Source: a virus
Taxonomy: Duplodnaviria > Heunggongvirae > Uroviricota > Caudoviricetes
Length of the DNA: 64,000 bases
Virus record (IMG/VR): IMGVR_UViG_3300048930_000918
Reading direction: 5' to 3' (one strand)
Each line of letters starts with the position of its first letter. Position 1 is the stretch's first letter. Shown here in pieces: positions 37,657-64,000 of this stretch. Position numbers and translations under genes: made by a program. The notes below the pieces were generated by a model. The model saw only the letters and a list, made by a program, of their open reading frames with translations, ran no database searches and had not been told where the DNA came from.

Positions 37657-37657
37657 T

Positions 37658-40935: not shown

Positions 40936-40938
40936 ATT

Positions 40939-41130: not shown

Positions 41131-41275
41131 ATTAAGGTTATTTGCAGCTTTTATAATTGCTGTATTATTAACGAGTGGTTACTTCATGTCTAAAAATCAA
41201 AAAGAAAGTAGCATGGATAATATTATTAGTTTAAAACTACATCACTAAACAATTTATTTACCTTAATTTATTTAA

Positions 41276-41402
41276 AACTTAACAATGAAAAAATACTGTA
41301 TCAGTTTTTTCAACAACTGCACTGATGTTATAGCAAAACAAGAGGAGTTAAGTTTTGAAGAGATTTTAAGCTACTTTAATAAAGTATTTACAAAACCTTT
41401 CA
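41276..41402 (+). repeat. left copy of a 127-bp (at least) perfect direct repeat covering the primase gene start; partner at 63874..64000
   Basis: Exact identity from 9 nt upstream of the ATG through 118 nt of coding sequence. The partner copy is cut off by the window end. Confidence 0.85.
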
Positions 41403-43678
41403 CTGGCAAAAAGAATTTAGGAGCTATGGTCTGTGGCTCTTTTAAGGATAATAGGAGATCGGGCGAGAACTTAACATCACGTAGTATTTTAACCTTTGAT
41501 CTTGACGGGTATGAAGAGGATTTTAATAGTTTAAAGAATGAGATTGAAAACAGTCTTGGTAATTATACTTACATTTACTACACCACTAGCAGCAGTACTT
41601 TAATTAAGCCAAGAGCTCGGATATTACTTTTTATTGATAGGGATGTTGATAGAGACAGCTATGGTAACTTGGGAAGAAAGATAGCAGCTAAAGTATTTTC
41701 ACCTATTCTTGTAAGAGCTATTAGTGATGAGTCCAGTTTTACCCCCTCTCAACTCATGTATTTACCAAATAAGGTAAATGATGATTTTAGAACCGGTAAG
41801 AATCAGAAAGAGCTTATAAAGGTTGATGATTATATTGCTGCTCGAGAGGAAGTTAAGAAAGAGGAGGATGAGGAGTTAAAGGATTTTATAGCTGTAAGTA
41901 ACAACACTCCATTACCTAATCTGACAAAAGAAAGGGTTATGGAAACACTTGGTAACTACGATTGCAGTGAGACGGGTTACCATGAATGGTTTAAGGTATG
42001 TCAGGCTCTTCACCATCAGTTTAAAGGATCAGAAGAGGGGCTTCAGATATTTACTAATTGGAGTTTAACCGATACTCGTTATTCTGAAGAAAGAATTAAA
42101 CAGGAATGCAGACTTAAATATAAAAGTCTGACAAAAAAAATTGATAATCCAGTTACTTTTGCGTCTGTTATAAAAATAGTAAATGAGAAAAAAGGGAGTC
42201 CTAATAAAATTGATACGAATTTAAATAACGAGGGAACATATGAGAAGACAAAGGCACTATCTTTAGACTTAGACCCTGAAATTAAACAATTACTAGAGCA
42301 GATAAAACAAGATACTTTTGGAATAGACAACGAAACTGGAGAACAAAAACAATTACCACTTGATTTTACTAAATACTTAAATCTTATAAAGGAACTAAAG
42401 AGAAGACATTTAGCCAAGGGTATTGGTTTAGATAAAAAGCGAAACCTAAACTATACTACTCTCAACAGTATATATCCCGATATAATAGAATATAATAATT
42501 CACTTTCATTAGAGGAAAATGACGATAAACCATACACAGGAGAACAGTTTTTAGAAGATGTAGCAAAGAATACAAATAATGGATTAAAAACAGGTTTCTC
42601 AGACCTAGATAATAAAATAGTTATTCAACCTTCAAGCCTCGCTTTTATAGCTGGTAGGCCATCGCACGGCAAAACTACCATGATGCTTAACATATTAAGA
42701 AATATGCTTGAGGATAAAGATAATAAAGACAAAGCATTTTTGTTTTACAGCTATGAGGAAACAAGAAGCGATATTTTAATAAAAATAGTACTCAGTGTTG
42801 CCAATTATTCAGAGCTTGAGGAAGAATTGAGAGAGGAAGGGGTAGAAGGAGTAAATCTCAGGCAACAGGCATTAAATCAATTTAAGAATTACAAACTAAA
42901 TAATACTTCATTAAATCCAATATTAGAAAAAGCATATAAAAAAGTTAATAGCTGGATAGAAGAAGGAAGATTAGAGATACTTACTCCAAAATCCAATACG
43001 GAAAGTTTGAGCGCTGCAATTATAAATCGTTGTATGGCTTTCCAAAGAGAAGAACAACAAACACAGCAGGCAGGATTAAAAAAAGAAGTTGCAGCAGTAT
43101 TTATCGACTACGTGCAGAAACTAAGCACTGAAGAGAAAAGAGATAACAGACAACAAGAAATCCAAAGAATATGTCAGACTTTACTTTCAACTGCACTGGA
43201 TAAAAGATTTACAACTTCAATAATATTAGGAGCACAAGTGAACAGAACAGTAAAATCATTAGATACTTTCAATTTAGATAACATGAGAGAGTCAGGAGAT
43301 ATTGAACAGGATGCAAACCTTGTACTTGGGATATGGGATGAGCAAGCCGGTAAATTAGACTCATTCTGCCGAAAATTACAAAAACTTGAAGACAAGGAGA
43401 TTAATGATACTACAGAAATGGATAAATTAGACAAAGAGAAAGCAAGAATAAGTGAAAAAATAGAAGAACTACAATCAAGTAACAGTCAGAACAAGCCTTT
43501 AAAAATAAAAGTTTTAAAAAACAGAAATGGGGTCAAAGATGTAATAATTGACCTTTGTTGTAACCCAAACCTTTTTCGTATCAAGGATAAATATGAACTT
43601 GAATATGATATCGACAAGTTTAAGAAAGACCTTGAAGAACAAGAAAACTTAGCACCCAACAATCATAAGAAAGAGTAG
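41285..43678 (+). CDS. primase / DnaB-like replicative helicase fusion protein (797 aa)
   Basis: ORF track. C-terminal half carries the DnaB-type Walker A FIAGRPSHGKTTMMLN plus downstream helicase-like blocks. The N-terminal half is assigned as primase-like by context only. Confidence 0.7.
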   Translation: MKKYCISFFNNCTDVIAKQEELSFEEILSYFNKVFTKPFTGKKNLGAMVCGSFKDNRRSGENLTSRSILTFDLDGYEEDFNSLKNEIENSLGNYTYIYYTTSSSTLIKPRARILLFIDRDVDRDSYGNLGRKIAAKVFSPILVRAISDESSFTPSQLMYLPNKVNDDFRTGKNQKELIKVDDYIAAREEVKKEEDEELKDFIAVSNNTPLPNLTKERVMETLGNYDCSETGYHEWFKVCQALHHQFKGSEEGLQIFTNWSLTDTRYSEERIKQECRLKYKSLTKKIDNPVTFASVIKIVNEKKGSPNKIDTNLNNEGTYEKTKALSLDLDPEIKQLLEQIKQDTFGIDNETGEQKQLPLDFTKYLNLIKELKRRHLAKGIGLDKKRNLNYTTLNSIYPDIIEYNNSLSLEENDDKPYTGEQFLEDVAKNTNNGLKTGFSDLDNKIVIQPSSLAFIAGRPSHGKTTMMLNILRNMLEDKDNKDKAFLFYSYEETRSDILIKIVLSVANYSELEEELREEGVEGVNLRQQALNQFKNYKLNNTSLNPILEKAYKKVNSWIEEGRLEILTPKSNTESLSAAIINRCMAFQREEQQTQQAGLKKEVAAVFIDYVQKLSTEEKRDNRQQEIQRICQTLLSTALDKRFTTSIILGAQVNRTVKSLDTFNLDNMRESGDIEQDANLVLGIWDEQAGKLDSFCRKLQKLEDKEINDTTEMDKLDKEKARISEKIEELQSSNSQNKPLKIKVLKNRNGVKDVIIDLCCNPNLFRIKDKYELEYDIDKFKKDLEEQENLAPNNHKKE

Positions 43679-43682
43679 AAAG

Positions 43683-43871
43683 ATGGAACAAATTGAAGGA
43701 AAAAACTATTTAACTATTTTAGAAGTCATGAAAAGGCTAGAAATATCTAGGCAAACCATACTTAGATATAGAAAACAGCAGAAATTAGACTTTATTAAAT
43801 TAAGAGGAAAAATTTATATAACTGAGGAAAGTTATAAAAGTTTGTTTATTCCTGAATCAGAAAAAAAATAA
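43683..43871 (+). CDS. AlpA/excisionase-like HTH protein (62 aa)
   Basis: ORF track. LTILEVMKRLEISRQTILRYRKQQK is an HTH_17-like segment. Start is 4 nt after the primase stop. Confidence 0.5.
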   Translation: MEQIEGKNYLTILEVMKRLEISRQTILRYRKQQKLDFIKLRGKIYITEESYKSLFIPESEKK

Positions 43872-43966
43872 AAATTCATTTTCTAAAAAGCGTCTTGTAC
43901 CCTGTTATTTTATCATATACAATACAGTGTATTTAAGTTTATTAAAACGTATTTAAGGTTAATGAT

Positions 43967-44218
43967 ATGTCTACAATCACCGCTCGTATTCCAGATGAAT
44001 TAAACGCTGCTCTTTCCAAGGTTGCCAAAGTAATGGAGAGACCTAAAACATTTCTGATATACAAAGCCGTTGAGCAATATATCAGGGAGGCAGAGCAGGA
44101 TATAGAAGATGCTGAAATAGCTCTCGCAAGGATGAAAAGCCCTGATAGAAAATTTTATACTTCTGAAGAAATCAAAGAAAGACTAGAGGCTAGATACCGC
44201 AGTGAGCATAATTTATAA
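43967..44218 (+). CDS. RHH-type antitoxin (ParD/CopG-like) (83 aa)
   Basis: ORF track. MSTITARIPDELNAALSKVAK fits the RHH pattern. Overlaps the downstream toxin gene by 17 nt. Confidence 0.6.
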   Translation: MSTITARIPDELNAALSKVAKVMERPKTFLIYKAVEQYIREAEQDIEDAEIALARMKSPDRKFYTSEEIKERLEARYRSEHNL

Positions 44219-44465
44219 AACAAAGTGGGATGATAGGGCAGAGGAAGACCTTGAGCAACTTCCTTCAGAGATTGCCTTAAAAGTTCACGATCGGGTTGAG
44301 AGCCATTTAACACAGCTACCTAAGCAATTAGGGAAAGCATTAGTTGGTCAGTATAAAGGTTTATATCGATATAGATATGGGGATTACAGAATACTATATG
44401 AGATTGATGCAGATAATAGGTTAATTATTATTATTAAAATAGGACACAGAAAAGAAATTTATTAA
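44202..44465 (+). CDS. RelE/ParE-family toxin (87 aa)
   Basis: ORF track. Family signature GLYRYRYGDYRILYEID...IIIKIGHRKEIY. Confidence 0.75.
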   Translation: MSIIYKTKWDDRAEEDLEQLPSEIALKVHDRVESHLTQLPKQLGKALVGQYKGLYRYRYGDYRILYEIDADNRLIIIIKIGHRKEIY

Positions 44466-44611
44466 TTCTGGTTTTTAATTCTATGTCTGTAAATTAGCCA
44501 TTGCAGACATGGAATTATAACTAAATACATTAACAAATTAACCACCTATCAATACAAAAAATATCAGACAGTTAATTCATTCTAAAATTTTATATATACA
44601 ATGAGGTTTAC

Positions 44612-46072
44612 ATGGCAAAAATTATTCAACTACCTAAACGAGACGTTATTAAATCACTACTTGATGCAAATCACCAAGTAAGGGGAGGGGATAATAAAAA
44701 CTTTTTAGAAGAAGAGTATGTTTACCTCAATAACCGAGAAAACATATTAAAAAAACAAATAACAATCGTTCAATTATTATCCGATAATAATATAAAGCTG
44801 TTTGATGAAATAAAAAATATTGAATCAAATAAAATTAAAATACTCCCTTTAGCAGACAAAAGTAATGTTTTTTATAGTGCATTGAACTTTTTACCAAAAC
44901 CACCAAACGATAAAAACAATGTTCTTCCATTATTCGAAAAAGAAAAAGATAGATTACAATATATTAATAATCTAACCAATCAGGAATTACATAAACACTA
45001 TCAAGATCAGATCAATAATCTAAACTTGGAATTAAAATATATTCAAAACATTATTAAAACATTAAAAGAGAGTTCAAGTAATAACAATACACCTAAATTT
45101 AAAACCATACCTACATATAACGGACTCAATAACACACTAAGTAAAACTCAAAAAGAATTAATAGCACCTTTCTACAAAAAAGATAAAACCGAGAATGAAA
45201 GAAAAATTTTACAAGAAATACTGCTAAATCATGTTAAAAAAGATAATGACTTTACTAACGATCAGAAAATAGAAATTGCACAATATATAATAAACAAAGA
45301 ATATGACAAAGCCTTTGATAACTATTTGATGTTTCCTCTTACAAGAGATGAACAAAGAATATTAAGAGCTTTAAGAGAAGAAATGTATGAACAAATAAAG
45401 ATAGGAAAGATTACAGGAATGGGTCAAACTTCTTATGAAGCATATATATTGTACAATAAATTTTTTACTATCTATGGTGTAAGCAAAGACAACAAAACAA
45501 GAAAACCTATAAAAGACATCTTGTTCGGTCGTACAACAAAAGGACTTCATAAAAATATTCTTTTAGAGCATGAAAATCTAGTTACTACATCCTTAATTCT
45601 TCAGGTACAAGAAATAAAGGAGAAAACAAATCTATCTAAAGAAAATTTAGGTACTGGGTTTATAATTACAATGCCTTCCTTCCTTTTTGTAAACGAAGAC
45701 AAATTAAAAGCAAAGAACTATTATAATCAAGAGAATGAAGGTTATAGAAGATTTATGAAGACAGGGAGAATGGCTCAATCAGATGCAGCAACTAAGATAG
45801 CATGTAAATTAGAAGTACTATGCCATTGTACTATTAATAACAAAAAGAGAAAAGGTAAGAAAGTATTACTTGATTTAGAAACATTAGTCAAGATAGCTGG
45901 ATATGAAAGACGTTACCAACGTAAACCTAGCGAAACAATTAATAAGATTAAAATTATATTAGATAGTCTTGTTGAGGCTAATTATTTGATAGAGGAATGG
46001 TGTATTAAAGAAGGTAAATTTAGACAGAAACAATATATTTTTAAACCTTTAAAAATACCTCTTTCCCAGTAG
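44612..46072 (+). CDS. hypothetical 486-aa protein, candidate iteron-binding replication protein
   Basis: ORF track. No recognisable motif. Its last codons run directly into the 6x22-bp tandem array. Confidence 0.35.
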   Translation: MAKIIQLPKRDVIKSLLDANHQVRGGDNKNFLEEEYVYLNNRENILKKQITIVQLLSDNNIKLFDEIKNIESNKIKILPLADKSNVFYSALNFLPKPPNDKNNVLPLFEKEKDRLQYINNLTNQELHKHYQDQINNLNLELKYIQNIIKTLKESSSNNNTPKFKTIPTYNGLNNTLSKTQKELIAPFYKKDKTENERKILQEILLNHVKKDNDFTNDQKIEIAQYIINKEYDKAFDNYLMFPLTRDEQRILRALREEMYEQIKIGKITGMGQTSYEAYILYNKFFTIYGVSKDNKTRKPIKDILFGRTTKGLHKNILLEHENLVTTSLILQVQEIKEKTNLSKENLGTGFIITMPSFLFVNEDKLKAKNYYNQENEGYRRFMKTGRMAQSDAATKIACKLEVLCHCTINNKKRKGKKVLLDLETLVKIAGYERRYQRKPSETINKIKIILDSLVEANYLIEEWCIKEGKFRQKQYIFKPLKIPLSQ

Positions 46073-46195
46073 GGATAGGGTGTACGCCCAGTAGGGATAG
46101 GGTGTACGCCCAGTAGGGATAGGGTGTGCGCCCAGTAGGGATAGGGTGTGCGCCCAGTAGGGATAGGGTGTGCGCCCAGTAGGGATAGGGTGTGG
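46065..46195 (+). repeat. tandem 22-bp repeat array, 6 copies (CCCAGTAGGGATAGGGTGT[A/G]CG), iteron-like
   Basis: Seen directly. Copies 1-2 have A, copies 3-5 have G, and the last copy is truncated. Each unit contains a TAGGGA/TAGGGT sub-repeat. Confidence 0.85.
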
Positions 46196-46464
46196 AAATT
46201 TAGAAAACCAAATGCCCCAGAAGATGTAGTTGAAATAAGGGTTTTAAGGCTGTTTTTTAACTCTTGTTTTTTAGGTGATAAACTTAATAAAAATGATAAA
46301 TTTTTATTGCGCAAACTTTTTTCATTACCATTCAAAAAGTTTGCTTTATTCACTTAATATATAAGCCGATATATTTTTATTGGAATATCGGCTTTATATA
46401 TAGAACCTTTCCTTGGTCATCTTTTATTCCGAAGGGTGCTCGGAATGGAAAGTTTTTAGTAAGA

Positions 46465-47082
46465 ATGCCTATAATTATAATGACCAGTAAAGCATTAGAA
46501 TATATATTAAACCATAGTACAAAAGAGGTTAAAAAAATGAAAGTGTCCAATAAGAAAGTTTTAAGTAAGAGTAACTCTCTTGAACTAACCCAAATAGATG
46601 GAGAATATATTTTTACCAAGGAAGGTATAGCTCGAATTTTTGAATTAGCTGGTAGATTAACTGCTGATGATATTGCGGGATATTTCGGTATTTTCAAGAA
46701 CACATTTTACAAGATTTTAGAGCGGCAATCTGAAGCCATGGAAGCGTTTTTCAAAGGGAAGTCACATGCTGTCAATACTGTCTCTGAAGCTTTATATCGA
46801 AAAGCTATTGGTGATAGTGATATAGGTGATACCACCGCTGCAACATTTTACTTGAAGGCTTTTGCAGGTTGGAAAGACGCTAACATTCATGACGTAACAT
46901 TAAACGCAGCTGTAAGTACGCCTTTGACTGAAGAAGAAAAAGAGTTGAGAACTTTAGATGTTAAACTATATAGCAAGTTTTGCCGTGAAAATGGTTTTGA
47001 TTTTTTAATGGATACGAAAGAAAAACTTGAAAAACTCAGAGAGATGGACGAAGAAGATGAGGATATTAATCACCTCTCATAG
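46465..47082 (+). CDS. terminase small subunit-like paralog (205 aa)
   Basis: ORF track. Shares blocks with 30754..31281 (see that feature). Acidic C-terminus. Confidence 0.45.
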   Translation: MPIIIMTSKALEYILNHSTKEVKKMKVSNKKVLSKSNSLELTQIDGEYIFTKEGIARIFELAGRLTADDIAGYFGIFKNTFYKILERQSEAMEAFFKGKSHAVNTVSEALYRKAIGDSDIGDTTAATFYLKAFAGWKDANIHDVTLNAAVSTPLTEEEKELRTLDVKLYSKFCRENGFDFLMDTKEKLEKLREMDEEDEDINHLS

Positions 47083-47135
47083 ACATTCTATACTTTTTGA
47101 GTTAAAATATGTTAACAGATTAAAGATTAATTAAA

Positions 47136-48670: not shown

Positions 48671-49627
48671 CTAAGAAACAAGTTTAGAAAAAATAGAGGA
48701 CAGGATACTTTTAATCGGTTTTGCGGATGTCATATCTTTATCTTTTAAATCATCAAATGACGTCTGACCTTCTAAAATGTCAGAATTGATTTCTTTTACT
48801 TTACCATTTTTAACTAATAGTTTCGGTTTTTGATAAACATTTTTTGTTTTACCGGTTTTTCTGTTGGTAACTTCATGAACAAAGGTTTTTTTAAAAAAGA
48901 ATTTAACTGCAACAACTCTGCGTCCCTCTTTTTCTTCCTCAAACCTTAAATCCATATCGTAATTATCGTTAATTTCTTGGCATGCGTGGTTTAGAATTTT
49001 AGCTTTAAAATCACCATATAACTTAAAACTATTACCTACTGCAAATGCTTCTCTTAATTGATCTACCGACTTTAACATCCACCCTGTCTCTTTGAACTCC
49101 TGTAGTAATTCATAAAGCCTTGTTGTGTAAAGACTACCGAAATTTGCTATTTCCTTGAGGTTATATAGTACAAATTTTTTCTTAACTTGTGCTAGGTACG
49201 GCATAACGTCATCGGTAAATTTGACTGTAATATATCCACCTCCTTTATTATATTTTGCCATTGAACAAACGTTTATTCGCCATACTTCTTTCAGCTCTAT
49301 TCTTTCCACTTTAATATCAGTCTTCATTAACTTATCTACCGCTTTTTGAAGAAATCTATAACTATTATCAATATCGGTATTAAATAACTCACTAAACTCT
49401 TTAGCGGTTAAAATATGTTCTCTTTGTAACTGTTCCGGTTGTAGATATTTTCCAAATTCATCAACCCCTCCTATTTTACTGACCAAATGCAAGAATACCT
49501 GATAATCACTATTAGTAAAATTACCGAAGTTGGCATTATTCAATTTTTTACTTTTATAAGACTTTGGTGTTTTAGATTTTAATACCTTAGGTAATTTGTT
49601 CTGCATTAATTTAATATCTATTTTCAA
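48671..49627 (-). CDS. Rep_3-family replication initiator (318 aa)
   Basis: ORF track. Rep_3-like blocks (GGYITVKF...LYNLKEIANFGSLYTTRLYELLQEF). Iterons lie 50 bp upstream. Confidence 0.6.
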   Translation of the reverse strand: MKIDIKLMQNKLPKVLKSKTPKSYKSKKLNNANFGNFTNSDYQVFLHLVSKIGGVDEFGKYLQPEQLQREHILTAKEFSELFNTDIDNSYRFLQKAVDKLMKTDIKVERIELKEVWRINVCSMAKYNKGGGYITVKFTDDVMPYLAQVKKKFVLYNLKEIANFGSLYTTRLYELLQEFKETGWMLKSVDQLREAFAVGNSFKLYGDFKAKILNHACQEINDNYDMDLRFEEEKEGRRVVAVKFFFKKTFVHEVTNRKTGKTKNVYQKPKLLVKNGKVKEINSDILEGQTSFDDLKDKDMTSAKPIKSILSSIFSKLVS

Positions 49628-49676
49628 ATATGAGTAATTGTAATACTACATATTTAATAGGTCAAATAGAAAAAAA

Positions 49677-49742
49677 CAGCTGTAAAAACCTCATAGTTCA
49701 GCTGTAAAAACCTCATAGTTCAGCTGTAAAAACCTCATAGTT
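49677..49742. repeat. three perfect 22-bp iterons (CAGCTGTAAAAACCTCATAGTT) upstream of the Rep_3 gene
   Basis: Seen directly as three contiguous identical copies. Confidence 0.85.
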
Positions 49743-49975
49743 CAATCCTTGAATGCCTTATTTCAACTAGCAATGGGGGGTAGTACAAATAATACTTCGT
49801 ATATACAAATAAATTTATGAAAGGGATAAGTGTGTGGATAACTTTAACATTTTTTGATTAAAAAAAAGAAAAAACTATCTATTAATTTGAGTTCGCTACG
49901 CTCACAAAAATATTTTTTATTTTAAGTGGTTGGCAAAAAGAATTTTTAGTTTTGCTTTTAAGGTTAGTTTTATAT

Positions 49976-50800
49976 TTACGTAATCCTCTTTGGGGAATTT
50001 AAATAATTTTTATTTGAAATTACCTTTTGACCTGTTTTATCTTCAAGTTCCAATCTTGCAGTCTTTGCAATTTTACCTCCAGCTTTACCTGCTTTTCTGT
50101 TTTCAATCATTCCTTTTGCATTTAAGCTTTCAGCAATTTGCCTAGTTGATAATTCAGCAAGAGCAGTAAAAAGTAGCTCTGCCTCTGTCATATGGTCTCT
50201 TAGGTTGTGTTTTTTTTCTAAACCTTTAAATTTTTGATGCTCTTTTATACTACTGCCAAAGCATTCTTGGTGAATGATGTTTGTTAAAGTAGCATAATCT
50301 TTACCTTCTTTAACATCATGGTCTTTCCAATAATCAGTTAACTTGTTTCTAGTTTCCTGACCTGACATTCTTCGCCTTATCCACTCATCGCTATAACCTA
50401 GCTTTTTCCAGTTACTTCTTGCTCTGTTAATCGATCTTTCAGGATCGGCAATTTCTTGTATACGTTCATAACCGACTTTAGCAAGCCACAACTTAAAAGG
50501 CTCTGCTTTAGGTGATGGGATTGATTGTATAATACGGAATAACGACTCGGTATTCGCACAATCAGTTAAGTATTTCTTACCATCAGAAGCTTTTAATTTC
50601 AGTCCGTGACAAAATGTCACGACCTCACTACCTTCTTGAGTTAATCGTTGTTTTAATTTTCTCCAATAAGCACCAGCATTAGTACTATCAGTTAATGCAC
50701 CTACAACATCAACAACCGAGAAAAACCATGTATCGGATTTTTTATCGTAGATTCTACGAATTTTGTGATCTTCAAAAATAGCTAAATCATTTTTCGTCAT
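49976..50800 (-). CDS. Bro-N domain protein (phage antirepressor-like) (274 aa)
   Basis: ORF track. N-terminus LAIFEDHKIRRIYDKKSDTWFFSVVDVVGALTDS is a typical Bro-N block. Confidence 0.6.
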   Translation of the reverse strand: MTKNDLAIFEDHKIRRIYDKKSDTWFFSVVDVVGALTDSTNAGAYWRKLKQRLTQEGSEVVTFCHGLKLKASDGKKYLTDCANTESLFRIIQSIPSPKAEPFKLWLAKVGYERIQEIADPERSINRARSNWKKLGYSDEWIRRRMSGQETRNKLTDYWKDHDVKEGKDYATLTNIIHQECFGSSIKEHQKFKGLEKKHNLRDHMTEAELLFTALAELSTRQIAESLNAKGMIENRKAGKAGGKIAKTARLELEDKTGQKVISNKNYLNSPKRIT

Positions 50801-53324: not shown

Positions 53325-53327
53325 GTT

Positions 53328-54350
53328 CTACAAATCTCCGAAATCATCAGAATCATTGATATTATTAGGAGTACTGCTAACATTGTCGGATACAGTGCCA
53401 TCGCTGTATCCGCTTAACCCTTCTGTAGTATTAGGCGTAACATTTACCATTCCTGAATCATACCCTCCTTCCTTGGCATCCCTTATTATTATTTCTTGCA
53501 TCTTTTTCAAGGTGGCTAAATTAGTTGCATCTGAATTATAAGGGGATATATGCGGTAATGATGCAAATTCAATTTGATTGGTGTAATTCATTAACTTATT
53601 TCCATATCCCGCTAATAATGAACCAAGAGTCTCTATCTCGGCTTGCTCAGGTGTTAAAGGAATAGAAATACCCCCCTTCTCTGCTAGCCAGTTATTGTTA
53701 ACAGTTCTTTTTAATAATCCTGCTTCTCCTTTAGAATCCTCACCTGTTGCTTCGGCTAACGCCTGATTTCTATTAATAGTAGCTATTGCGTTATCAATTG
53801 TGCGTGTAATCCCTTCCATTCCTAGTTTGTGTTTCTTATCAAACGGAGTTTCTTTTTTCTGAGCACCTGCTGCCATTCTGGCAAATATAGATCGTTTATG
53901 ATGATCTTTCATCTCACCCAGCTTTTCTTGTTCTAGTGCCATTTTCTGGGCATTCATCTCTCTATTATAAGCATCCTGCTCCATCCGAGCTGCTTTAGCT
54001 TCCTCACCCGCTCTAAATCTATGTGCCATATCAGCAAACACACTATTCTGATTCTGTGATGCTTCTTCACTCTGATCATAAGCTCTCATCCCAGCTGGTA
54101 CTCCTCTTGCAGCTGCTGCGAACTTACCCATGAATCCCCTACTCATTGGGGTCTGATCCTGATTTAAAGCCTCACTAAAGCCCATTAGTCCCGTGCGGAA
54201 TGCTTTATCTGATTGTTCTTCATCCATCCCGATAGACTGCTTGGCACTCTTGATCGCCCTCATCACTCCTTCATCAAAAGGTGATTTCTTCTGCATATTC
54301 TGATCAATGAAAGCTTGTCTATCAAGCATGTCCTGCATGTATTTACTCAT
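53328..54350 (-). CDS. virion-protein paralog (340 aa) of 9742..10872
   Basis: ORF track. N-terminus MSKYMQDMLDRQAFIDQNMQKKSPFDEGVMRAIKSAKQS is near-identical to 9742..10872. Confidence 0.6.
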   Translation of the reverse strand: MSKYMQDMLDRQAFIDQNMQKKSPFDEGVMRAIKSAKQSIGMDEEQSDKAFRTGLMGFSEALNQDQTPMSRGFMGKFAAAARGVPAGMRAYDQSEEASQNQNSVFADMAHRFRAGEEAKAARMEQDAYNREMNAQKMALEQEKLGEMKDHHKRSIFARMAAGAQKKETPFDKKHKLGMEGITRTIDNAIATINRNQALAEATGEDSKGEAGLLKRTVNNNWLAEKGGISIPLTPEQAEIETLGSLLAGYGNKLMNYTNQIEFASLPHISPYNSDATNLATLKKMQEIIIRDAKEGGYDSGMVNVTPNTTEGLSGYSDGTVSDNVSSTPNNINDSDDFGDL

Positions 54351-54518
54351 AATTTACTTCTAATTTCTTTAACATCCCAATTATATCATAATATTTAAGT
54401 ATCTTAAAGCTTCTTTCCCTGATGTTTTAAGTATCTCAACATGAATAGATTGTTTACGTTGAAAATTATTGCGACAGAAAAAATATAACATAAGGTTTCA
54501 AGGCATAGATACGTAAAT

Positions 54519-54562
54519 GGGGTTCTTTGCGAGAAAAATTGTCCTTTCCCGCAAAGAACCCC
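54519..54562. other. GC-rich 13-bp-stem hairpin (GGGGTTCTTTGCG ... CGCAAAGAACCCC)
   Basis: Seen directly, with an 18-nt loop. No downstream T-run on either strand. Confidence 0.5.
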
Positions 54563-54578
54563 TAAATAAGCTGTAAAA

Positions 54579-54758
54579 TCAAAAGTAAACTATTCTAAAT
54601 GTGTAATATCTAGCAAAACATCAGAAAAATTTTTAATTATAAATCCAAGAGCTGTTAGAATCTCTAAAATTAAATATAACGTATTCTCTTCAAGATGAAT
54701 TAATCTTGCGAACAGTAGTAGAACTAGAATATTGAGGCTGATGATGATATATTTCATT
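54579..54758 (-). CDS. small hydrophobic protein (59 aa), family with 6106..6297 and 55083..55238
   Basis: Not in the ORF track (under 60 aa). Product MKYIIISLNILVLLLFARLIHLEENTLYLILEILTALGFIIKNF... Confidence 0.35.
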
Positions 54759-55082
54759 TTTTACCTTTATGTGATAATGGATTATAAGAAAAATACAAAA
54801 AATATTAAAAATTCTTTTATAATTCAAATCTTCTTTAAGAAAAATTTTAACCCTAATAAAATAACAAAATATGCTTCCTAATAGTCCTTGGGTTAAAATT
54901 GGGTATTTTTCAGAAAAAAGTTCTTCAAGTTTACCTACCCATGGTTTTATGAAAAAATTAATTATTACAAATAAATAGAAAATATTGGATATTTTAATTT
55001 TTTCTTTTTTAAAATATCTAGTATGTCCGATATAGAATAATATGCTGACGAAAAGAAATGATTAAACTGTAAACAAAATCAA

Positions 55083-55238
55083 TCATTTTTTGTGATGTTC
55101 CATATTCCAAAATAATACACAACACGCAATACCTATCCCTTCCATAACTAAAAACAAATTATCGTTTTCAATGTATAGGAGTCTACCTGCAACGATCAAA
55201 GCAAGACAATTTAGTAGTACTATTAGAATTTCTTTCAT
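55083..55238 (-). CDS. small hydrophobic protein (51 aa), same family; start overlaps upstream stop (ATGA)
   Basis: Not in the ORF track. Product MKEILIVLLNCLALIVAGRLLYIENDNLFLVMEGIGIACCVLFWNMEHHKK. Confidence 0.35.
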   Translation of the reverse strand: MKEILIVLLNCLALIVAGRLLYIENDNLFLVMEGIGIACCVLFWNMEHHKK

Positions 55239-55657
55239 TTTACCCACTCTTTAACTTTTTCTTGGATTATGCCTTTCTTCTTTCTGGATTCTCTCATTTT
55301 TTCCTTATATTCTTCGTTGGGAAAAACGGAATCATGAAAATTCTTAATTACGTCCAATCTTTTCCTAACCTTACCTCTTTGCTCTGCTTCTTTTAGATGC
55401 TTCCGAGCCAGATAATCATCAATATACTTCTTCATATGTCGCTCTAGCTTATCATCACCTATATCTTCCTCCTCCTCTTCTTCGTCAGCTTCGTCAGCTT
55501 CGTCATCGTGGTAATGTTCTTCTTTATTACCTTTGACGATTTTACGAATATGAGACGGGTTTTTCAGCAGAAGGTTAACATCAACTTCATTTAGGTTGTA
55601 AGGAGTCTTTTTACCTTTAAATGGAACTTTACTTTTAGATTTCATGGTAACTTCCAA
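55235..55657 (-). CDS. acidic protein (140 aa); paralog of 5491..5898
   Basis: ORF track. Shared N-terminus (KVPFKGKKTPYNLNEVDVNLLLKNPSHIRK) plus acidic tract DDEADEADEEEEEED. Confidence 0.55.
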   Translation of the reverse strand: MEVTMKSKSKVPFKGKKTPYNLNEVDVNLLLKNPSHIRKIVKGNKEEHYHDDEADEADEEEEEEDIGDDKLERHMKKYIDDYLARKHLKEAEQRGKVRKRLDVIKNFHDSVFPNEEYKEKMRESRKKKGIIQEKVKEWVK

Positions 55658-55787
55658 TATTAATTTTCAACCATATTATACAAAAATATTTATGCCTTGT
55701 ATACCAATTAAAACCTGATATTGCTGTACTTTTTAATTAAAATATGTTAGTATTAAATCTTAATTTTAACTTAACATGTTAAAATAA

Positions 55788-56120: not shown

Positions 56121-56137
56121 TAGAAGAGGCTAAGCAA

Positions 56138-56761: not shown

Positions 56762-56776
56762 TTTACAACACTCAGC

Positions 56777-57151: not shown

Positions 57152-57383
57152 CAAATTTTTCCTGATAAAAAATAATAAAAACTCCTGTAGCTACCCAAAT
57201 TTAAATAACCATTGCTACCAATTAAAACTAGCCTCAGGTATTTAATTTTATTCAACAACGTATTGCGCACTGTAATAAATTCCAAAAAATTATTAATCAG
57301 CATTTCGGCTAATCGTCAATTTCATTTACTATTTTTCTGATTTCCATTTTTTTGAATCTGAAAATCAAAGTTATAACAAACAT

Positions 57384-57992: not shown

Positions 57993-58046
57993 TTAAAAAC
58001 AAACTATAAAAAGTAATAATATTGCGTATATGATGTTCTCACTAGT

Positions 58047-58859
58047 TTAATTTTCGTCTTGTGGGTCATATGTGTCTTCTCCATATAACCTAGTAATTTT
58101 ATATAGGTTTGGGTTATCATGAATATAAGAAACCTGAACATCTACTATATAAGCTAAATCTTGCCAGTTTTTATTGGCAAATTGTATGTTAGATGACATA
58201 GCAAGTATTTTATCATTTTCATTGTCAAAAATTACTTTTTTAGGTTTTTGATCAATTTCAGGAATTATAACTTTACCGCTATTACTAGTATGTTTTTCAT
58301 TAAAATTAGCACTTGCCCAATACATTAAAACCTTAAAATATTGCTTTGGTTGATCTTCTGTTAAACCTTCTAATTTTTTATTTAAACCATTTTGTATTGC
58401 ATTTGCCTTTGTAGAATCAATAGTAATTATATTATTGATGATTTTATTATTATTACCTTTAACATCTATTACTAAATTACTCCCATGATCATTTGCTGTT
58501 GAATTGATTATATCTGATAATTCTATAAAATCCTTTTTAGTTAATATATGTTTTGATTCCTTTGTAATACCTAAAAAAAAGTCATAACAGTTTTTTAAAT
58601 AAGAACTAAATTCTATTATAGAATTTACTTGATTAATTGTTTCCATAACTACAGGTATTAATTCTGCATATATAGAACCACTTTCTAATTTTGATATATA
58701 TAACTTCCTTTGATTTTTGTTATAATCAAAGAAATCACTTCTTTTTAAAAAATTGTCATACTGATTACCTAAAGCATTTAAAGAAGCAGTAAGTTGATTT
58801 AATTCAATAGGTTGTTTATTATTTAGTTTTATAGTTAACTTCACTTCATTATCTGTCAT
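58047..58859 (-). CDS. hypothetical protein (270 aa)
   Basis: ORF track. Confidence 0.4.
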   Translation of the reverse strand: MTDNEVKLTIKLNNKQPIELNQLTASLNALGNQYDNFLKRSDFFDYNKNQRKLYISKLESGSIYAELIPVVMETINQVNSIIEFSSYLKNCYDFFLGITKESKHILTKKDFIELSDIINSTANDHGSNLVIDVKGNNNKIINNIITIDSTKANAIQNGLNKKLEGLTEDQPKQYFKVLMYWASANFNEKHTSNSGKVIIPEIDQKPKKVIFDNENDKILAMSSNIQFANKNWQDLAYIVDVQVSYIHDNPNLYKITRLYGEDTYDPQDEN

Positions 58860-59172
58860 ATTACCTTTTATTTTTAATTGTTTTGGGTTACCTTTTTACT
58901 GCCGTAAATCGTAAGTTTTATTATAAGGATTGCCGTAGTGTTCCTTTAACTTTGATACTTCCATGTTGAGTGATATTCGCATACATGACTACATCCCATA
59001 AAAACGTAATATAAGTTTCCTTTAAATGTTTTATTTAAAGTAGTGAGGCAAATATACATTAAATATCTTGAAAACCAAAGCTGGTTAAAGCATATTAATT
59101 TTAAAAATATCTTTAATGATATTAAATAAATAACTGATAATAGTACATTATTATATTAAGTATCTTTAAAGT

Positions 59173-59874
59173 ATGGATTGTTCAACCCCTTGCCAGTATT
59201 CAATCAGATTAATAGACAAGTTAAAGTCATTGGATACTAAAAATGTATTGGATTTTGAGTTAATTAATAAGGCTATTTACTGGGCTAAGAAGTATCACGG
59301 CAATCAGAAAAGAAATAGTGGTGAGCCGTATTATTCGCATCCATTAGAAGTAGCTTATATATTTGCTGAAAACATAGCATTAGGAGAATATAAAAGATAT
59401 TACACAACAGACTTGATAATTAGTACTATATTGCACGATACTATTGAAGATACTTTGTTAACTAAAGATATGATTGAGCAAGGTTTTAATCAATCTATTG
59501 CTAACAATGTTGAAGACTTAACAAGAATTAAAACAGATAAAAAATTTACAGCAGGGGAAACTTTAGAATTAATATACCCCCAGAATAAAAAAGGTATTTT
59601 GTATATTAAAATTTGTGACAGACTCCATAACTTACGGACTATAGCCTTTGTTTCAGAAATAAAAAGAAATAAAATTATTGAGGAAACTATAAAATACTTT
59701 ATCCCTCTTTGTGCTTTCTTAGACCTTTATAATATAAAAAAAGAACTAATAACAATAAGTTATTATCACAAATTATTAGAAGTTCCTCAAGACTTAATCT
59801 CTAATAGTGGTTCTTCGCTCCCTAACCCTTTTTCTGATTCGTATCTAATAAAATTGAATAATCCCCAACCATAA
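59173..59874 (+). CDS. spoT: SpoT/RelA-like HD-domain (ppGpp hydrolase) fragment protein (233 aa), lacks synthetase domain
   Basis: ORF track. GNQKRNSGEPYYSHPLEVAYIFAE, ILHDTIEDT and IKICDRLHNLRTI match the E. coli SpoT N-terminal HD domain blocks. The 3' end overlaps proP on the opposite strand by 88 nt. Confidence 0.75.
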   Translation: MDCSTPCQYSIRLIDKLKSLDTKNVLDFELINKAIYWAKKYHGNQKRNSGEPYYSHPLEVAYIFAENIALGEYKRYYTTDLIISTILHDTIEDTLLTKDMIEQGFNQSIANNVEDLTRIKTDKKFTAGETLELIYPQNKKGILYIKICDRLHNLRTIAFVSEIKRNKIIEETIKYFIPLCAFLDLYNIKKELITISYYHKLLEVPQDLISNSGSSLPNPFSDSYLIKLNNPQP

Positions 59875-61121
59875 AGAATGATTACCGGACCAAATAAAAT
59901 TAACAATCCGTAATTACCATAAAATTTAATCAGATAAGCAATTCCGAATGAACTGACTACGTACATTAACGCCCGAGATATTGCGAATATAAGAGAGACG
60001 CTGGTAAATCGTTTGAAAACTGGAAAGGATTTATAAAAAATAGGAACGGCTGGGAACTCAGAGGGCATAAAGAATATTACAAATAACTGAATTAACGAAA
60101 ATTCAAAGACAGTAGAAACATTATTTAAAAGAAATGGTAAACCAAAAAAAACAGGAACACTAACAAGCCATTTTATTTTCAATATTTTTAAAGGATTTAT
60201 ATAACGTACCAACCAAGTCATCAGAATTACTGAAGATAAATCAAATAATGAAAGGACAAAATTATGATCTATAATTTGTGTAGAAGTATAGTTAAAAGAA
60301 TTTTTTAAAACATTAGCTCCATGTATATATATGAAATAAAGGTGATACACAGGACAGGCTAGCTGAATAAAAAACAGTGATATTGCCAATTTCTTATTAA
60401 CAGCTTCCTTGAACCAAAATTTTGCCGTTACTTCTTCTTTATTAAGATTAAATTTATTGCATAATCTAGCTACCTCTTGTCTAGCATCAGCAAAATCAGC
60501 TGTTTCCCTTAAACTTTTTCTTGCAAAAAAACCAACAAACGCAACAACAGCACCTATCCAAAAAGCTATACGCCAATTATATCCATCGCTTATAGAAAGT
60601 TTAGCTATGAATAAAGCACACATAGTACCAGAAAAACTACATATATTAGTAAAAGCAACAGCAGGATAAACTAAAGGAGGTTTTATCATTTCTGTTAAAT
60701 ATACCTCTGCTCCGATAGCCTCACCCATAGAGCTAATGCCTTGAATAATACGACATATTGTAACAGCCCAAGCAGCAATAATGCCTATCTGATTATAGGT
60801 AGGTAAGTTAGCCATGATTACACAAGTAATGGCCATCGCAAAGCTAGTAATTATTACAGTATAACGGCGTCCCATCTTATCACCTAAACGACCAATTAAA
60901 TAAGCTCCTATAGGACGAAAAAAGAATGTAGAACAAAAGGCAAATGCTGATAATAAAGATGCAGTGAACGGATCAGTCTTAGGGAAAAACAACTCATTAA
61001 GAAGTACTGCCATGTGAACGTATAACATAACGTCAAAATACTCGAGAAACGTGCCTATAGATAACAACCCTATAGCCTCTCTCTGTTCTCTTGTAAGACT
61101 TTTTTGTTCTTTTATTATCAA
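59787..61121 (-). CDS. proP: MFS transporter, ProP-like (proline/betaine) (444 aa)
   Basis: ORF track. 12-TM-like hydrophobicity pattern, with an MFS-type N-terminal motif region. Confidence 0.65.
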   Translation of the reverse strand: MIIKEQKSLTREQREAIGLLSIGTFLEYFDVMLYVHMAVLLNELFFPKTDPFTASLLSAFAFCSTFFFRPIGAYLIGRLGDKMGRRYTVIITSFAMAITCVIMANLPTYNQIGIIAAWAVTICRIIQGISSMGEAIGAEVYLTEMIKPPLVYPAVAFTNICSFSGTMCALFIAKLSISDGYNWRIAFWIGAVVAFVGFFARKSLRETADFADARQEVARLCNKFNLNKEEVTAKFWFKEAVNKKLAISLFFIQLACPVYHLYFIYIHGANVLKNSFNYTSTQIIDHNFVLSLFDLSSVILMTWLVRYINPLKILKIKWLVSVPVFFGLPFLLNNVSTVFEFSLIQLFVIFFMPSEFPAVPIFYKSFPVFKRFTSVSLIFAISRALMYVVSSFGIAYLIKFYGNYGLLILFGPVIILYGWGLFNFIRYESEKGLGSEEPLLEIKS

Positions 61122-61248
61122 GGTATTACTCTAATTGCTTTTAGTAATTAGAAAAACAAATTAAATTCATTATGAAAATTATTTTAACCAAATTTATAAA
61201 ATTTAATTTTAGGATAGTGTTTTTTTTACATAGAAGCTACAACTAGCC

Positions 61249-61431
61249 TTAAGTATTTATTAGTTTTTTATACTGTTCTTCGGATATTATAAATACAGTA
61301 TTATCCTTATACTGTATGGCTTGCGTCTTAAGTAAAGCATTATTTACAATAATATCTAAGAATAATCTTGCGTCATTGGCGGGTATTTCATTAAGAGTGT
61401 GTAAATCAAAATCGTATTTGTAATTAATCAT
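61249..61431 (-). CDS. small protein (60 aa), possibly orphan Phd/YefM-like antitoxin
   Basis: ORF track. Loose resemblance to the Phd/YefM N-terminal pattern. No adjacent toxin gene. Confidence 0.3.
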   Translation of the reverse strand: MINYKYDFDLHTLNEIPANDARLFLDIIVNNALLKTQAIQYKDNTVFIISEEQYKKLINT

Positions 61432-61727
61432 ATTAAACCTCTAAAACTAGTCATTAAAACTGGTGCTAGGGGCTGAAGAAAATTATTACACGTAACAATC
61501 CGGCTATACTTCATGCCAAGAGGCATTTATAAATAGCGCACCCCTAGCATGAAGCTTAAAAGGTCTTAAATATGAATCTTAGATTGTTAAATGATATTCT
61601 TCAGTATCACTAACAGATTTAAAGCTACTTAAATTAATATCAATAAGCAAGAATTATTTACTTATTTAGTTATTGATTTTTATAACTATGTGTTATATTT
61701 ATTATTAAATATAATAAATTAATAACT

Positions 61728-62330
61728 ATGAAACTGATTAAATTAGTTAGTATATGGAATCCAAAAGGAGGACAGGGTAAAAGCACTCTAGCTATTAACC
61801 TTGCGGCCTCCTCCGTAGAGCTAGGCTTAAAACCTCTGGTTATTTGCCAAGACCCGCAAGGAACTTCATTATTATACTATAAATCAGGCAACTTGCCTTT
61901 TGAAGTTCTAGATAGCGTGCCAAGTAATCGCCCAGAAGCAGATATTGTCATATTCGATCATCAGGCTAGCGACTGGGAAGTGCCTGCTAACAATTTGATC
62001 GTAATGCCTCTTAAACCAGCAAGAGATCAGTATGCTACTTATATTGACGCTTATAGAAGAGCCGAGTTACTTGAAAAAAGAATAATCACTGTAGTAACAG
62101 ATGGGCAGGAACATAGAGCCAGTGAAAAGCAAACTATGGACTACCTCAAGAGTAAAGGTGCTTACGCTATTGCTGCCAGCGGAGTATTTAGCCGTGCAGC
62201 TAGCGAGTATATGACAATATTTGACCCAAAGATGAATAAGGCATACAAAATCAAAGAACGCAGAATGGAAATTAATAAGATTCTAGCAAACATCTTAATT
62301 GACAATGAGGAAATAAAAAATAATGACTAA
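61728..62330 (+). CDS. parA: ParA-type (small, ParF-like) partition ATPase (200 aa)
   Basis: ORF track. Deviant Walker A NPKGGQGKSTLAINLA. Confidence 0.8.
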   Translation: MKLIKLVSIWNPKGGQGKSTLAINLAASSVELGLKPLVICQDPQGTSLLYYKSGNLPFEVLDSVPSNRPEADIVIFDHQASDWEVPANNLIVMPLKPARDQYATYIDAYRRAELLEKRIITVVTDGQEHRASEKQTMDYLKSKGAYAIAASGVFSRAASEYMTIFDPKMNKAYKIKERRMEINKILANILIDNEEIKNND

Positions 62331-62595
62331 TAATTGGATAGACGAAGAAAACGCAAGAGCAAGCGAGTTAGCTAAAACTGGAACTACTGCTAACAATAAC
62401 GCTCCGCTACTGGTAAAAACCACACCTAAAAATGCTCCAGTTCGTAGTATCAAGAGCATTTATATTCAGGAATCGTATAGCCTAGCTTTTGATAAGCTGG
62501 TATTTGAGCAGAAAATAGCTAAAGGCAAGAAAGCTCCGCAGTTGATGGAGGAGGCTATAGAGTTATTGTTAAAAAAATATGGTGGGAGTTTATGA
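62323..62595 (+). CDS. ParG-like RHH centromere-binding partner (90 aa)
   Basis: ORF track. Overlaps parA by 8 nt. Disordered N-tail plus a C-terminal RHH-like segment (RSIKSIYIQESYSLAFDKLVFEQKI...). Confidence 0.45.
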   Translation: MTNNWIDEENARASELAKTGTTANNNAPLLVKTTPKNAPVRSIKSIYIQESYSLAFDKLVFEQKIAKGKKAPQLMEEAIELLLKKYGGSL

Positions 62596-62862
62596 AACTT
62601 TTTCTCTATGTTATTAATATCCCAGAGGGGACATCAATAGTAAGCATCTTTCAATTCCTGAAGCAATCTTTTTTCTTTCTTAACAGTTAAGATTTCGTAA
62701 GAGTTTTAGTAAATATAATTTAGATAACGAGATTTAGGTGTAAAAATAACCCTGTTAGCAAATTTACTAGAAAAAACATGTAACTAATTGAAAAAAGTTG
62801 TTGTATATTGTGTTAAGTTGTACTATTCTAAGAATAGATAATAACTTTAGGAAAAATAAAAG

Positions 62863-63822
62863 ATGAGCTATCTAACTAATACAAGCAGTCTAGTTAATAT
62901 AGAAGCACAAAATTTCTCAAAATACCTAAGAGAATTTATCTCAGAACAGGATATTAAGGAAAATAGCAAGGGAACTTACAGGAGAGCTTTAAATCAGTTC
63001 TTTTCCTTTATGTCTAATAAATCTATAGGGCTAACTGGCAACGATATTTTGGAGTATAAAAAGTTTCTAGATAGTCAGGGATTAGCTGCTTATACAATTA
63101 CGGCTTATCTAGTAGTAGTAAGGAGGTTTTTTGCGTGGACTGAATCAAAGAAGATATACCCTAATATTGCTAAAACCATAAAGGGGATGAAGAACCCAAA
63201 GGGGTTTAGAAAGGAGTGCTTGTCAAATGGACAAATTGCTAGAGTATTAAAAGGAATTAATCAATCTACTCTTCAAGGTAAAAGGGACTTTGCTATTATC
63301 AACTTATTGCTTAGAACAGGATTGAGGACTATTGAAATTCAAAGAGCCGATATTGGAGATATAGCAAAATGTGTAGATGAGGCTAAGTTCTATATTCAAG
63401 GGAAAGGAAGGGATGCTAAAGACGAATATGTAGTACTTACCTATACTTCTCTAAAACCAATCTTAACTTATTTAGAAGCAAGAGGGCAAGCCGATAAATC
63501 TGCTCCTTTATTTGCTTCAATATCCGATCGTAATAACGGCGATAGAATGACAACTAGAAGCATAAGCAGACTGATTAAGAATGCACTGATTAAAGCTGAT
63601 ATTGACGATAAAAAACTGACAGCACACTCACTTAGGCACACTGCTATAACTAATGCTCTAAAAGGCGGGGCAAGTCTTCAGGAAGTAAAAACGATGGCAA
63701 GACATGCGAATATTAATACCACGCTAATTTATAGCCACAATATAGAGCGTATGGCTAATCCAGCAGAAAGGGTTATCGATAAATACATGGAAGAACACAC
63801 AGAATTTTTAACCTCAATTTAA
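62863..63822 (+). CDS. tyrosine recombinase / phage-type integrase (319 aa)
   Basis: ORF track. C-terminal catalytic blocks TGLRTIEI and HSLRHTAITN...NTTLIYSH (R, H-x-x-R and Y nucleophile). Confidence 0.85.
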   Translation: MSYLTNTSSLVNIEAQNFSKYLREFISEQDIKENSKGTYRRALNQFFSFMSNKSIGLTGNDILEYKKFLDSQGLAAYTITAYLVVVRRFFAWTESKKIYPNIAKTIKGMKNPKGFRKECLSNGQIARVLKGINQSTLQGKRDFAIINLLLRTGLRTIEIQRADIGDIAKCVDEAKFYIQGKGRDAKDEYVVLTYTSLKPILTYLEARGQADKSAPLFASISDRNNGDRMTTRSISRLIKNALIKADIDDKKLTAHSLRHTAITNALKGGASLQEVKTMARHANINTTLIYSHNIERMANPAERVIDKYMEEHTEFLTSI

Positions 63823-63873
63823 AGTAAACAAATGAATGATGATTTTATTAGTTGCCATGATGGCATCTCTAGT

Positions 63874-64000
63874 AACTTAACAATGAAAAAATACTGTATC
63901 AGTTTTTTCAACAACTGCACTGATGTTATAGCAAAACAAGAGGAGTTAAGTTTTGAAGAGATTTTAAGCTACTTTAATAAAGTATTTACAAAACCTTTCA
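63874..64000 (+). repeat. right copy of the 127-bp perfect direct repeat (primase start region)
   Basis: Identical to 41276..41402. A 13-bp palindrome TGCCAT-G-ATGGCA at 63853..63865 lies just upstream, 31 bp after the integrase stop. Confidence 0.85.
63883..64000 (+). CDS. second copy of the primase/helicase gene, 5' end only (runs off the right window edge)
   Basis: First 39 codons identical to 41285 (MKKYCISFFNNCTDVIAKQEELSFEEILSYFNKVFTKPF). Confidence 0.6.
   Translation, partial: MKKYCISFFNNCTDVIAKQEELSFEEILSYFNKVFTKPF

Follow-up and report, generated by a model that had tools for sequence, protein, structure and literature searches.

A 127-nt repeat in a viral contig probably reflects a phage and a Megaira-type plasmid joined by assembly at a shared primase tract

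We analysed a 64,000-nt stretch of DNA (hereafter the window) from the IMG/VR virus record IMGVR_UViG_3300048930_000918 (Caudoviricetes), in which the start of a primase gene recurs at the right end of the sequence, shortly after a tyrosine integrase gene. An earlier note had read the 22.6 kb between the two copies as a replicon-like unit and had proposed tandem integration, a dimer, two related elements side by side or an assembly wrap-around. The last of these is the best explanation. The window probably holds two separate circular replicons, a podovirus-like phage and a plasmid of a Rickettsiaceae bacterium, that were threaded into one contig through an identical piece of their primase genes, so that the duplication is a wrap-around artefact and the "repeat" is most likely one physical locus written twice. 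The duplication itself is unremarkable; of mild interest is that a phage and a plasmid share genes.

Direct comparison bore out the repeat: 41276-41402 matches 63874-64000 at every one of its 127 nt (100% identity), and the two copies are offset by 22,598 nt. At the left edge identity comes to a hard stop, with zero extra matching bases, and the 300 nt preceding one copy bear no relation to those preceding the other; the right-hand copy is truncated where the window ends. In the left copy, 9 nt precede the primase ATG at 41285. As described earlier, the right copy begins 51 nt past the stop of the integrase open reading frame (ORF; 62863-63822) and has a palindrome nearby (63853-63865). The replicon-like character of the 22.6-kb unit was upheld by its plasmid maintenance genes, and the inventory given for it stood (Rep_3 with iterons, a second array, ParA, a toxin–antitoxin pair, a TerS-like gene, cargo genes and int), except that the "ParG-like" gene has no family match.

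Relatives and sister contigs, though not the source contig, were found through 40-mer and protein scans of IMG/VR, Joint Genome Institute (JGI) metagenomes and GTDB genomes; an exact-protein look-up of the 797-aa primase gave no match. The most informative was JGI contig Ga0498918_0002397 (L015; 56,335 bp, sample 3300048834; loci L017 and L020 lie on the same contig), the first and last 127 nt of which are identical, both ends falling inside TerL. In this sample the phage is a closed 56,208-bp circle without plasmid genes. Compared with the window, it shows zero differences over 11.7 kb (29909-41634), then 105 differences across 41635-42193 (~81% identity) and no similarity past 42193. Beyond the primase start it carries a PriCT_2+VapE primase, a DUF2800 nuclease, an Enc34-type single-stranded-DNA-binding protein (SSB), an SNF2 helicase and a lysozyme. 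The plasmid is present in the same sample only as short separate contigs (L001, 2.8 kb; L003, 5.0 kb; L022, 2.1 kb); given a closed phage and a plasmid in short contigs, the two replicons were therefore not equimolar there.

Three related phage contigs, two from IMG/VR (57.6 kb and 47.9 kb) and JACCDR012509095.1, tell the same story at greater distance. They share the gene order of the window from ~35 kb to beyond 41276, at 85–87% nucleotide identity (loci L004/L006, L005 and L008), and L005, L006 and L008 lose similarity only at ~42193, ~900 nt into the primase ORF. Their primase has 719 aa, of which the N-terminal ~305 residues form a prim-pol/PriCT_2 part (82% aa identity to the window) fused to a VapE-type helicase, and it is followed by a DUF2800 nuclease, an Enc34-type SSB, an SNF2 helicase and a lysozyme. 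The proposal that 41276 is the edge of a unit did not survive these comparisons: the phage genome is colinear through that position, identical to 41634, homologous to 42193 and syntenic in the three related phages. Position 41276 thus appears to be merely the start of phage–plasmid homology, and neither an element boundary nor an att site.

It follows from the same alignments that the switch from phage to plasmid DNA in the window falls somewhere within 41276-41634, a 359-bp tract that is identical in the window and the closed phage and of which at least the first 127 nt are also present at the integrase-proximal junction of the plasmid (Table 1). A tract of complete identity in this setting is probably the product of a recent recombination event or gene conversion involving the phage and the plasmid. 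Tandem integration, a dimer and two related elements side by side find no support here; the unit is joined to the phage by the shared 359-bp primase piece and not by the integrase.

The other end of the unit, the integrase–primase junction, was examined in the same way. Contig L001 (2,824 bp, sample 3300048834) is 100% identical to window positions 61174-63997 and extends from ParA through a 90-aa ORF, the recombinase and the 51-nt spacer into the primase start, of which it has 124 nt. Because an independent contig reproduces the junction, it is genuine contiguous sequence. The succession of ParA, 90-aa ORF, integrase, primase-helicase and HTH_17 is conserved in diverged relatives. In the interior of a linear contig from a GTDB metagenome-assembled genome (CADEGZ010000006.1, 35.5 kb; L010), ParA and the 90-aa ORF (88.5% nucleotide identity) are followed by the integrase (92% aa identity), by a 951-aa primase-helicase starting 14 nt after it and then by a homologue of the 486-aa protein of the unit. 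The integrase-to-primase gap is 10 nt in the Logan contig SRR25018358_351 (L023) and 0 nt in a JGI/NCBI contig of 11.2 kb (P0048), and in both of these a PriCT_2+DnaB_C primase-helicase is followed by HTH_17 and then by a toxin–antitoxin pair and/or Bro-N. Since the order occurs inside linear contigs of relatives, it is conserved synteny and not a junction made by excision. The earlier suggestion that this adjacency is what a circularised unit would produce was right insofar as a circle gives the same arrangement; circularisation did not create it, as it is a conserved, operon-like arrangement in which the gap is 0–14 nt in three diverged relatives.

These observations also bear on the idea that the tyrosine integrase inserted the unit, as a tandem or dimer of an integrative plasmid or satellite placed before the phage primase, with the repeat as an attL/attP-type site. 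The recombinase gene 51 nt from the right copy, the excisionase-family HTH_17 gene after the primase and the palindrome in the spacer would all suit such an event. Comparison with the empty site, however, puts the divergence not at 41276 but at 41635-42193, where the coding sequences are homologous; instead of a short core, 359 bp of an orthologous ORF are identical; the 0–14-nt gap in relatives leaves no space for an att site; the Xer-like recombinase sits within a conserved ParA/90-aa/integrase stability cluster; and the window contains no tRNA. The palindrome, TGCCATGATGGCA, is unique within the window and absent from the matching spacers of L010 and L023. Scans for tRNAs, spacer palindromes, promoters and terminators, and inverted repeats gave no att-type evidence: no convincing inverted repeats were found around int, and the number of promoter and terminator sites in 62.5-64 kb was no higher than in shuffled sequence. 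We consider insertion by the integrase very unlikely. Between the 90-aa ORF and int, ~195 bp (62584-62778) have no counterpart in L010, where the gap is 75 nt, and the Xer-like recombinase may have its site in this intergenic region.

The favoured explanation, a circular plasmid threaded onto the phage by the assembler, would work as follows. One population, most likely of a Megaira-like Rickettsiaceae bacterium, would have hosted both a 56.2-kb podovirus-like phage, whose primase is a prim-pol/PriCT_2 part fused to a VapE-type helicase, and a 22,598-bp plasmid (Rep_3/iterons, ParA, RelBE, Xer-like recombinase), in which the helicase fused to prim-pol/PriCT_2 is of the DnaB type. In a de Bruijn graph the exact 359-bp tract would merge the two circles into a figure-eight, its first 127-mer (41276-41402) being the vertex at which the phage edge and the plasmid integrase edge join. 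The assembler path would have run from the phage through the shared tract into the plasmid branch and once round the plasmid, past ParA and the recombinase to the primase start. On re-entering a used vertex it would halt, writing the 127-nt vertex again at the contig end to give a "lollipop". The length of the repeat, 127 nt, equals the terminal overlap (k) in the sister JGI assembly of the same phage. Overlaps of this kind typically mark circular sequences in SPAdes-type assemblies, and terminal-identity criteria for circularity are in use (PMC5332604). Circular sequences from such de Bruijn assemblies show an exact repeat as long as the largest k (127), offset by the length of the replicon, and so does the window; the window differs from an ordinary circular overlap in that its repeat pairs the contig end with an internal point, after a phage "stick" of at least 41 kb. 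We infer that position 64000 is the contig end and that phage and plasmid were physically separate in the source sample.

Several points weigh against this explanation. The contig end at 64000 is itself inferred, since the source contig turned up in none of the collections searched. No closed plasmid contig was recovered, the circular closure of the unit being implied by the integrase–primase junction. A de Bruijn assembler would give the same picture for a true tandem dimer or a cointegrate. Finally, a second contig, JGI Ga0498925_0038551 (L018; 6.6 kb, sample 3300048587), which is equivalent to window positions 40249 to ~46870, likewise passes from phage early genes to the plasmid-type primase, with the crossover at another place. 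Phage-type sequence reaches 41941 and plasmid-type sequence begins at 41975; the switch lies in the identical 33 nt between them (41942-41974), a stretch too short to merge paths at k = 127 unless coverage was low. With such transitions in two of three assemblies, real recombinant molecules may exist.

The corresponding alternative is a real cointegrate or recombinant phage, in which homologous recombination between the primase genes fused the 56-kb phage and the 22.6-kb plasmid circles. Such a molecule would cross the shared tract after position 64000 and then enter the VapE-type primase of the phage, so that the 127-nt repeat would open a real second copy of the primase gene, a hybrid one; the PD-(D/E)XK nuclease and SSB of the phage may have promoted the fusion. 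The two independent assemblies with different crossovers (41276-41634 in the window, 41942-41974 in L018) speak for it, as do the 359-bp identical tract amid ~81% identity, which points to recent recombination, the further phage-related genes on the plasmid and the recombination module encoded by the phage lineage. Plasmids with phage inserts are transduced by P22 or staphylococcal phages, and in plasmid transduction or cointegration through phage homology a perfect-homology tract long enough for recombination is present; here, too, a plasmid and a co-resident phage share one. Set against this, the same phage closes without the plasmid in the sister sample, where plasmid contigs are fragmentary, and a fusion of 78.8 kb would be 140% of the phage genome, presumably beyond the capacity of a head sized for ~56 kb. 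Sample 3300048587, the source of L018, is also visibly low in coverage: the phage assembly there is in pieces, with no contig across 32746-32812 and a 31-nt overlap of contigs, worked out from their coordinates, at ~40249-40279. The length of the L018 switch, 33 nt, matches what we take to be the smallest k of the JGI metaSPAdes recipe, and it is plausible that L018 is a low-coverage, low-k assembly chimera. Overall, we regard a real cointegrate as unlikely.

It is also conceivable that the whole window is one phage-plasmid replicon, carrying virion genes together with Rep_3 and ParA, and that the repeat is an internal duplication. Phage and plasmid modules are contiguous both in the window and in L018, and a 63-kb IMG/VR "viral" contig (L039) carries a Rep_3 gene that is 71% identical to that of the unit. 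Such a replicon is nevertheless hard to reconcile with a closed, self-sufficient phage that has its own replication module, lacks plasmid genes and is identical to the phage part of the window, or with an integrase–primase junction that joins the 22.6-kb unit to its own start and does not connect it with the far end of the phage, and we give this possibility very little credence. In L039 (IMGVR_UViG_3300045391_006443, 63,242 bp), the Rep_3 gene lies at 8001-8882 next to RecT-like and PemK-like genes; from the 14 kb of the contig that were examined, it could be a misclassified plasmid, a phage-plasmid or another chimera.

Wrap-around of a threaded plasmid would best account for the repeat, and the exchange at the primase gene has a history of its own. 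In the mosaic primase-helicase of the window, residues 1-305 constitute a phage-like archaeo-eukaryotic primase (AEP) prim-pol plus PriCT_2, the N-terminus being 82% aa identical to the 719-aa phage proteins, and residues 320-797 a DnaB_C-type helicase of the plasmid lineage. We compared the window locus (41285-43678) with those of L010 (10954-13809) and L023 (1219-3612). The helicase half is 54% identical to L010, ~80% to L023 and 97% in a fragment, L007. The primase half is of the DnaG/Toprim type in L010 and most database homologues, and in L023 it is a diverged prim-pol with ~35% identity to the window in that part. This pattern indicates repeated swapping of primase domains at one linker, at about residues 305-320, in related elements. 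The identity pattern further indicates that a phage-type primase domain was acquired earlier and that its 5' end was exchanged recently. We also considered whether the prim-pol/DnaB_C fusion might itself be an assembly chimera, and rejected this, as the same architecture is found in independent, diverged contigs (40–59% identity).

Other primase-helicases offer partial parallels. T7 gp4 and Twinkle-type proteins likewise combine a primase domain and a DnaB-family helicase in one polypeptide, but the protein of the unit has a prim-pol+PriCT_2 part, apparently of phage origin, in place of DnaG/Toprim; in the phage this part is joined to a VapE/D5-type helicase. Megaera plasmids carry DnaB_C-type primase-helicases, as the unit does, whereas a full-length PriCT_2+DnaB_C protein is not found on any PLSDB plasmid, the best match reaching 48% coverage and 39% identity.

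Table 1 Features of the window discussed in the text
Feature	Position	Strand	Basis or remarks
Phage part	1-41275	virion module -, early genes +	Pfam and PHROG matches; 100% identical to JGI contigs of the same phage
Tail spike, 1495 aa	11520-16007	-	phage virion module
Capsid	20683-21618	-	phage virion module
Portal	26100-28472	-	phage virion module
TerL	28615-30159	-	phage virion module
TerS	30754-31281	-	phage virion module
Left repeat copy	41276-41402	+	9-nt leader and first 118 nt of primase ORF; preceded by phage early genes
Shared tract, 359 bp	41276-41634	+	window identical to closed phage; at least the first 127 nt also identical to the plasmid's int-proximal junction
Mosaic primase-helicase, 797 aa	41285-43678	+	Pfam, PHROGs
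Plasmid-type (W-type) prim-pol/PriCT_2 part	41635-42193	+	~80-81% nucleotide identity to phage primase
HTH_17/excisionase-family DNA-binding protein, 62 aa	43683-43871	+	directly after primase-helicase; conserved in relatives
RelB-like antitoxin	43967-44218	+	family matches
RelE/ParE toxin	44202-44465	+	family matches
Conserved protein, 486 aa	44612-46072	+	synteny
22-nt array, ~7 copies, unit CCCAGTAGGGATAGGGTGTGCG	46065-46216		starts within the last codons of the 486-aa gene
TerS homologue	46465-47082	+	phrog_309, E 4e-15
Rep_3 initiator (WH1+WH2)	48671-49627	-	PF01051 2.9e-28, PF21205 2.3e-15
Three perfect 22-nt iterons CAGCTGTAAAAACCTCATAGTT	49677-49744		50 nt upstream of rep
Bro-N antirepressor-like protein	49976-50800	-	89% nucleotide identity to Megaera plasmid antirepressor gene
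Three paralogues of phage virion-module-region genes	51054-55657	-	protein comparison
SpoT-like HD-domain protein (cargo)	59173-59874	+	overlaps MFS gene
MFS transporter (cargo)	59787-61121	-	same overlapping pair on Megaera plasmid CP113873.1
ParA ATPase	61728-62330	+	AAA_31 and CbiA above Pfam cut-offs; NCBIfam ParA_partition match weak, below cut-off
ParA partner ORF, 90 aa	62323-62595	+	same order in L010, 88.5% nucleotide identity
Xer-like tyrosine recombinase, 319 aa	62863-63822	+	SAM_1 and Phage_integrase domains; 92% aa identity in L010
13-nt perfect palindrome TGCCATGATGGCA	63853-63865		in 51-nt int-primase spacer
Right repeat copy	63874-64000	+	plasmid's own primase start

By gene content and nucleotide similarity, the 22.6-kb unit appears to be a Megaira-type (Rickettsiaceae) plasmid, a new relative of the Rep_3/iteron/ParA plasmids. 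Rep_3, adjacent iterons and a partition ATPase are all present, as the sequence tests for a Rep_3 plasmid demand. Its only nucleotide relatives among 72,556 PLSDB plasmids are those of Candidatus Megaera polyxenophila: the Rep_3 region is 83.6% identical to plasmid CP113873.1, and another segment reaches 88%. In 50,697 phage records there were zero megablast matches to the unit, which is therefore not a known phage or satellite. With the Megaera/Rickettsiaceae plasmids (among them CP113873.1, CP113870.1 and AP017966.1) it shares a RelE/ParE toxin–antitoxin system, antirepressors, the SpoT-like HD+MFS pair and low G+C; its TerS homologue and phage-identical primase 5' end, by contrast, are not seen in them. 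A literature search on Megaira plasmids and phages found nothing directly relevant.

Other genes of the unit link it both to its plasmid relatives and to the phage (Table 1). L010 and L023 encode homologues of the 486-aa protein (462 and 498 aa) after their primase-helicases, and the protein has no Pfam, NCBIfam or PHROG match; the 90-aa partner ORF of ParA has no family match either. The 22-nt array at 46065-46216 lies 2.4 kb from rep, differs in sequence from the three iterons adjacent to Rep_3 and may be a second origin or a centromere-like site. The plasmid TerS homologue is 36% identical to the phage TerS (30754-31281, upstream of TerL; E 1e-24). The three paralogues of genes in the phage virion-module region comprise a 756-aa protein (51054-53324; 38% identical to the 763-aa product of phage 7466-9757), a 340-aa protein (53328-54350; 64% over the first 238 aa to the 376-aa product of 9742-10872) and a 140-aa protein (55235-55657; 65% to the 135-aa product of 5491-5898), and none of these families has a Pfam or PHROG match. 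The N-terminus of the 756-aa protein matches hypothetical proteins on Megaera plasmids, in part only, and a 725-aa homologue is encoded in L023; the protein had no match in the phage collection.

The phage part of the window, positions 1-41634, has the gene content of a podovirus-like phage. In addition to the virion genes listed in Table 1, SU10-type adaptors are encoded on the minus strand, and small early genes on the plus strand (~33-41.2 kb) run straight into the primase gene. Its TerL is only 39% identical to those of Roseobacter phages CRP-901/902. The phage shares identical DNA and gene families with a Megaira-type plasmid, and a Rickettsiaceae host is therefore implied; to our knowledge, phages of Rickettsiaceae outside Wolbachia are essentially undescribed. 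A repeat search found dozens of degenerate 51-nt (17-aa) repeats at 12162-14651 within the tail spike gene. A patatin-like phospholipase gene (17227-18300) lies inside the virion module, and the related phage L005 carries genes for a PLD-like nuclease/phospholipase, a LysE translocator and an outer-membrane-protein (OMP) beta-barrel. These accessory genes (patatin-like, PLD-like, LysE and OMP) are reminiscent of Rickettsiales effectors.

The phage-related genes on the plasmid raise a further possibility, namely that the 22.6-kb plasmid is a plasmid-borne hitchhiker or satellite of the phage. The TerS homologue, the three virion-region paralogues, Bro-N, the int/primase-helicase/HTH_17 core and a primase domain near-identical to that of the helper all fit. 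P4 and phage-inducible chromosomal island (PICI) satellites have a core of int, primase-helicase and AlpA/HTH_17 and, like the unit, no capsid, portal or TerL gene. Satellite phage P4 can also persist as a plasmid, and Staphylococcus aureus pathogenicity island (SaPI) and PICI satellites carry TerS; the unit likewise has a packaging-related gene homologous to that of the co-occurring phage, a likeness that extends to homology only. Unlike P4 and PICIs, however, it has a full Rep_3/iteron and ParA backbone and metabolic cargo, and no chromosomal attachment site was seen. No pac or cos site was identified on the unit, and searches of IMG/VR with the junction 40-mer and the integrase did not find the plasmid, which is weak negative evidence on packaging. 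As a curiosity, relevant only if the plasmid were packaged as concatemers, 2.5 x 22,598 bp is 56.5 kb, near the 56.2-kb phage genome. We rate the satellite interpretation as rather improbable; under it, the plasmid could spread among obligate intracellular Rickettsiaceae as a TerS-directed concatemer or via homologous-recombination cointegrates of the kind hinted at by two assemblies.

Taken as a threaded assembly, the contig is probably a phage–plasmid chimera, the phage and plasmid parts of which need separate analysis, and the 22.6-kb segment should not be reported as a tandem or integrated unit. The real biology, as far as sequence comparison can tell, appears to be the presence on a plasmid of a phage-derived primase domain, a TerS homologue and three paralogues of virion-module genes. 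Judged by the shared tract, a phage and a plasmid of a Megaira-like intracellular bacterium have exchanged DNA recently, and the primase domain of this plasmid family's primase-helicase emerges as swappable, being of the DnaG type, a diverged prim-pol or a phage-like prim-pol. As far as we know, little has been learned about phages or routes of gene transfer in Rickettsiaceae other than Wolbachia, and a TerS homologue on the plasmid therefore suggests a possible route of horizontal transfer. The main remaining interest thus lies in phage–plasmid recombination and in possible phage-assisted plasmid transfer in an intracellular bacterium.

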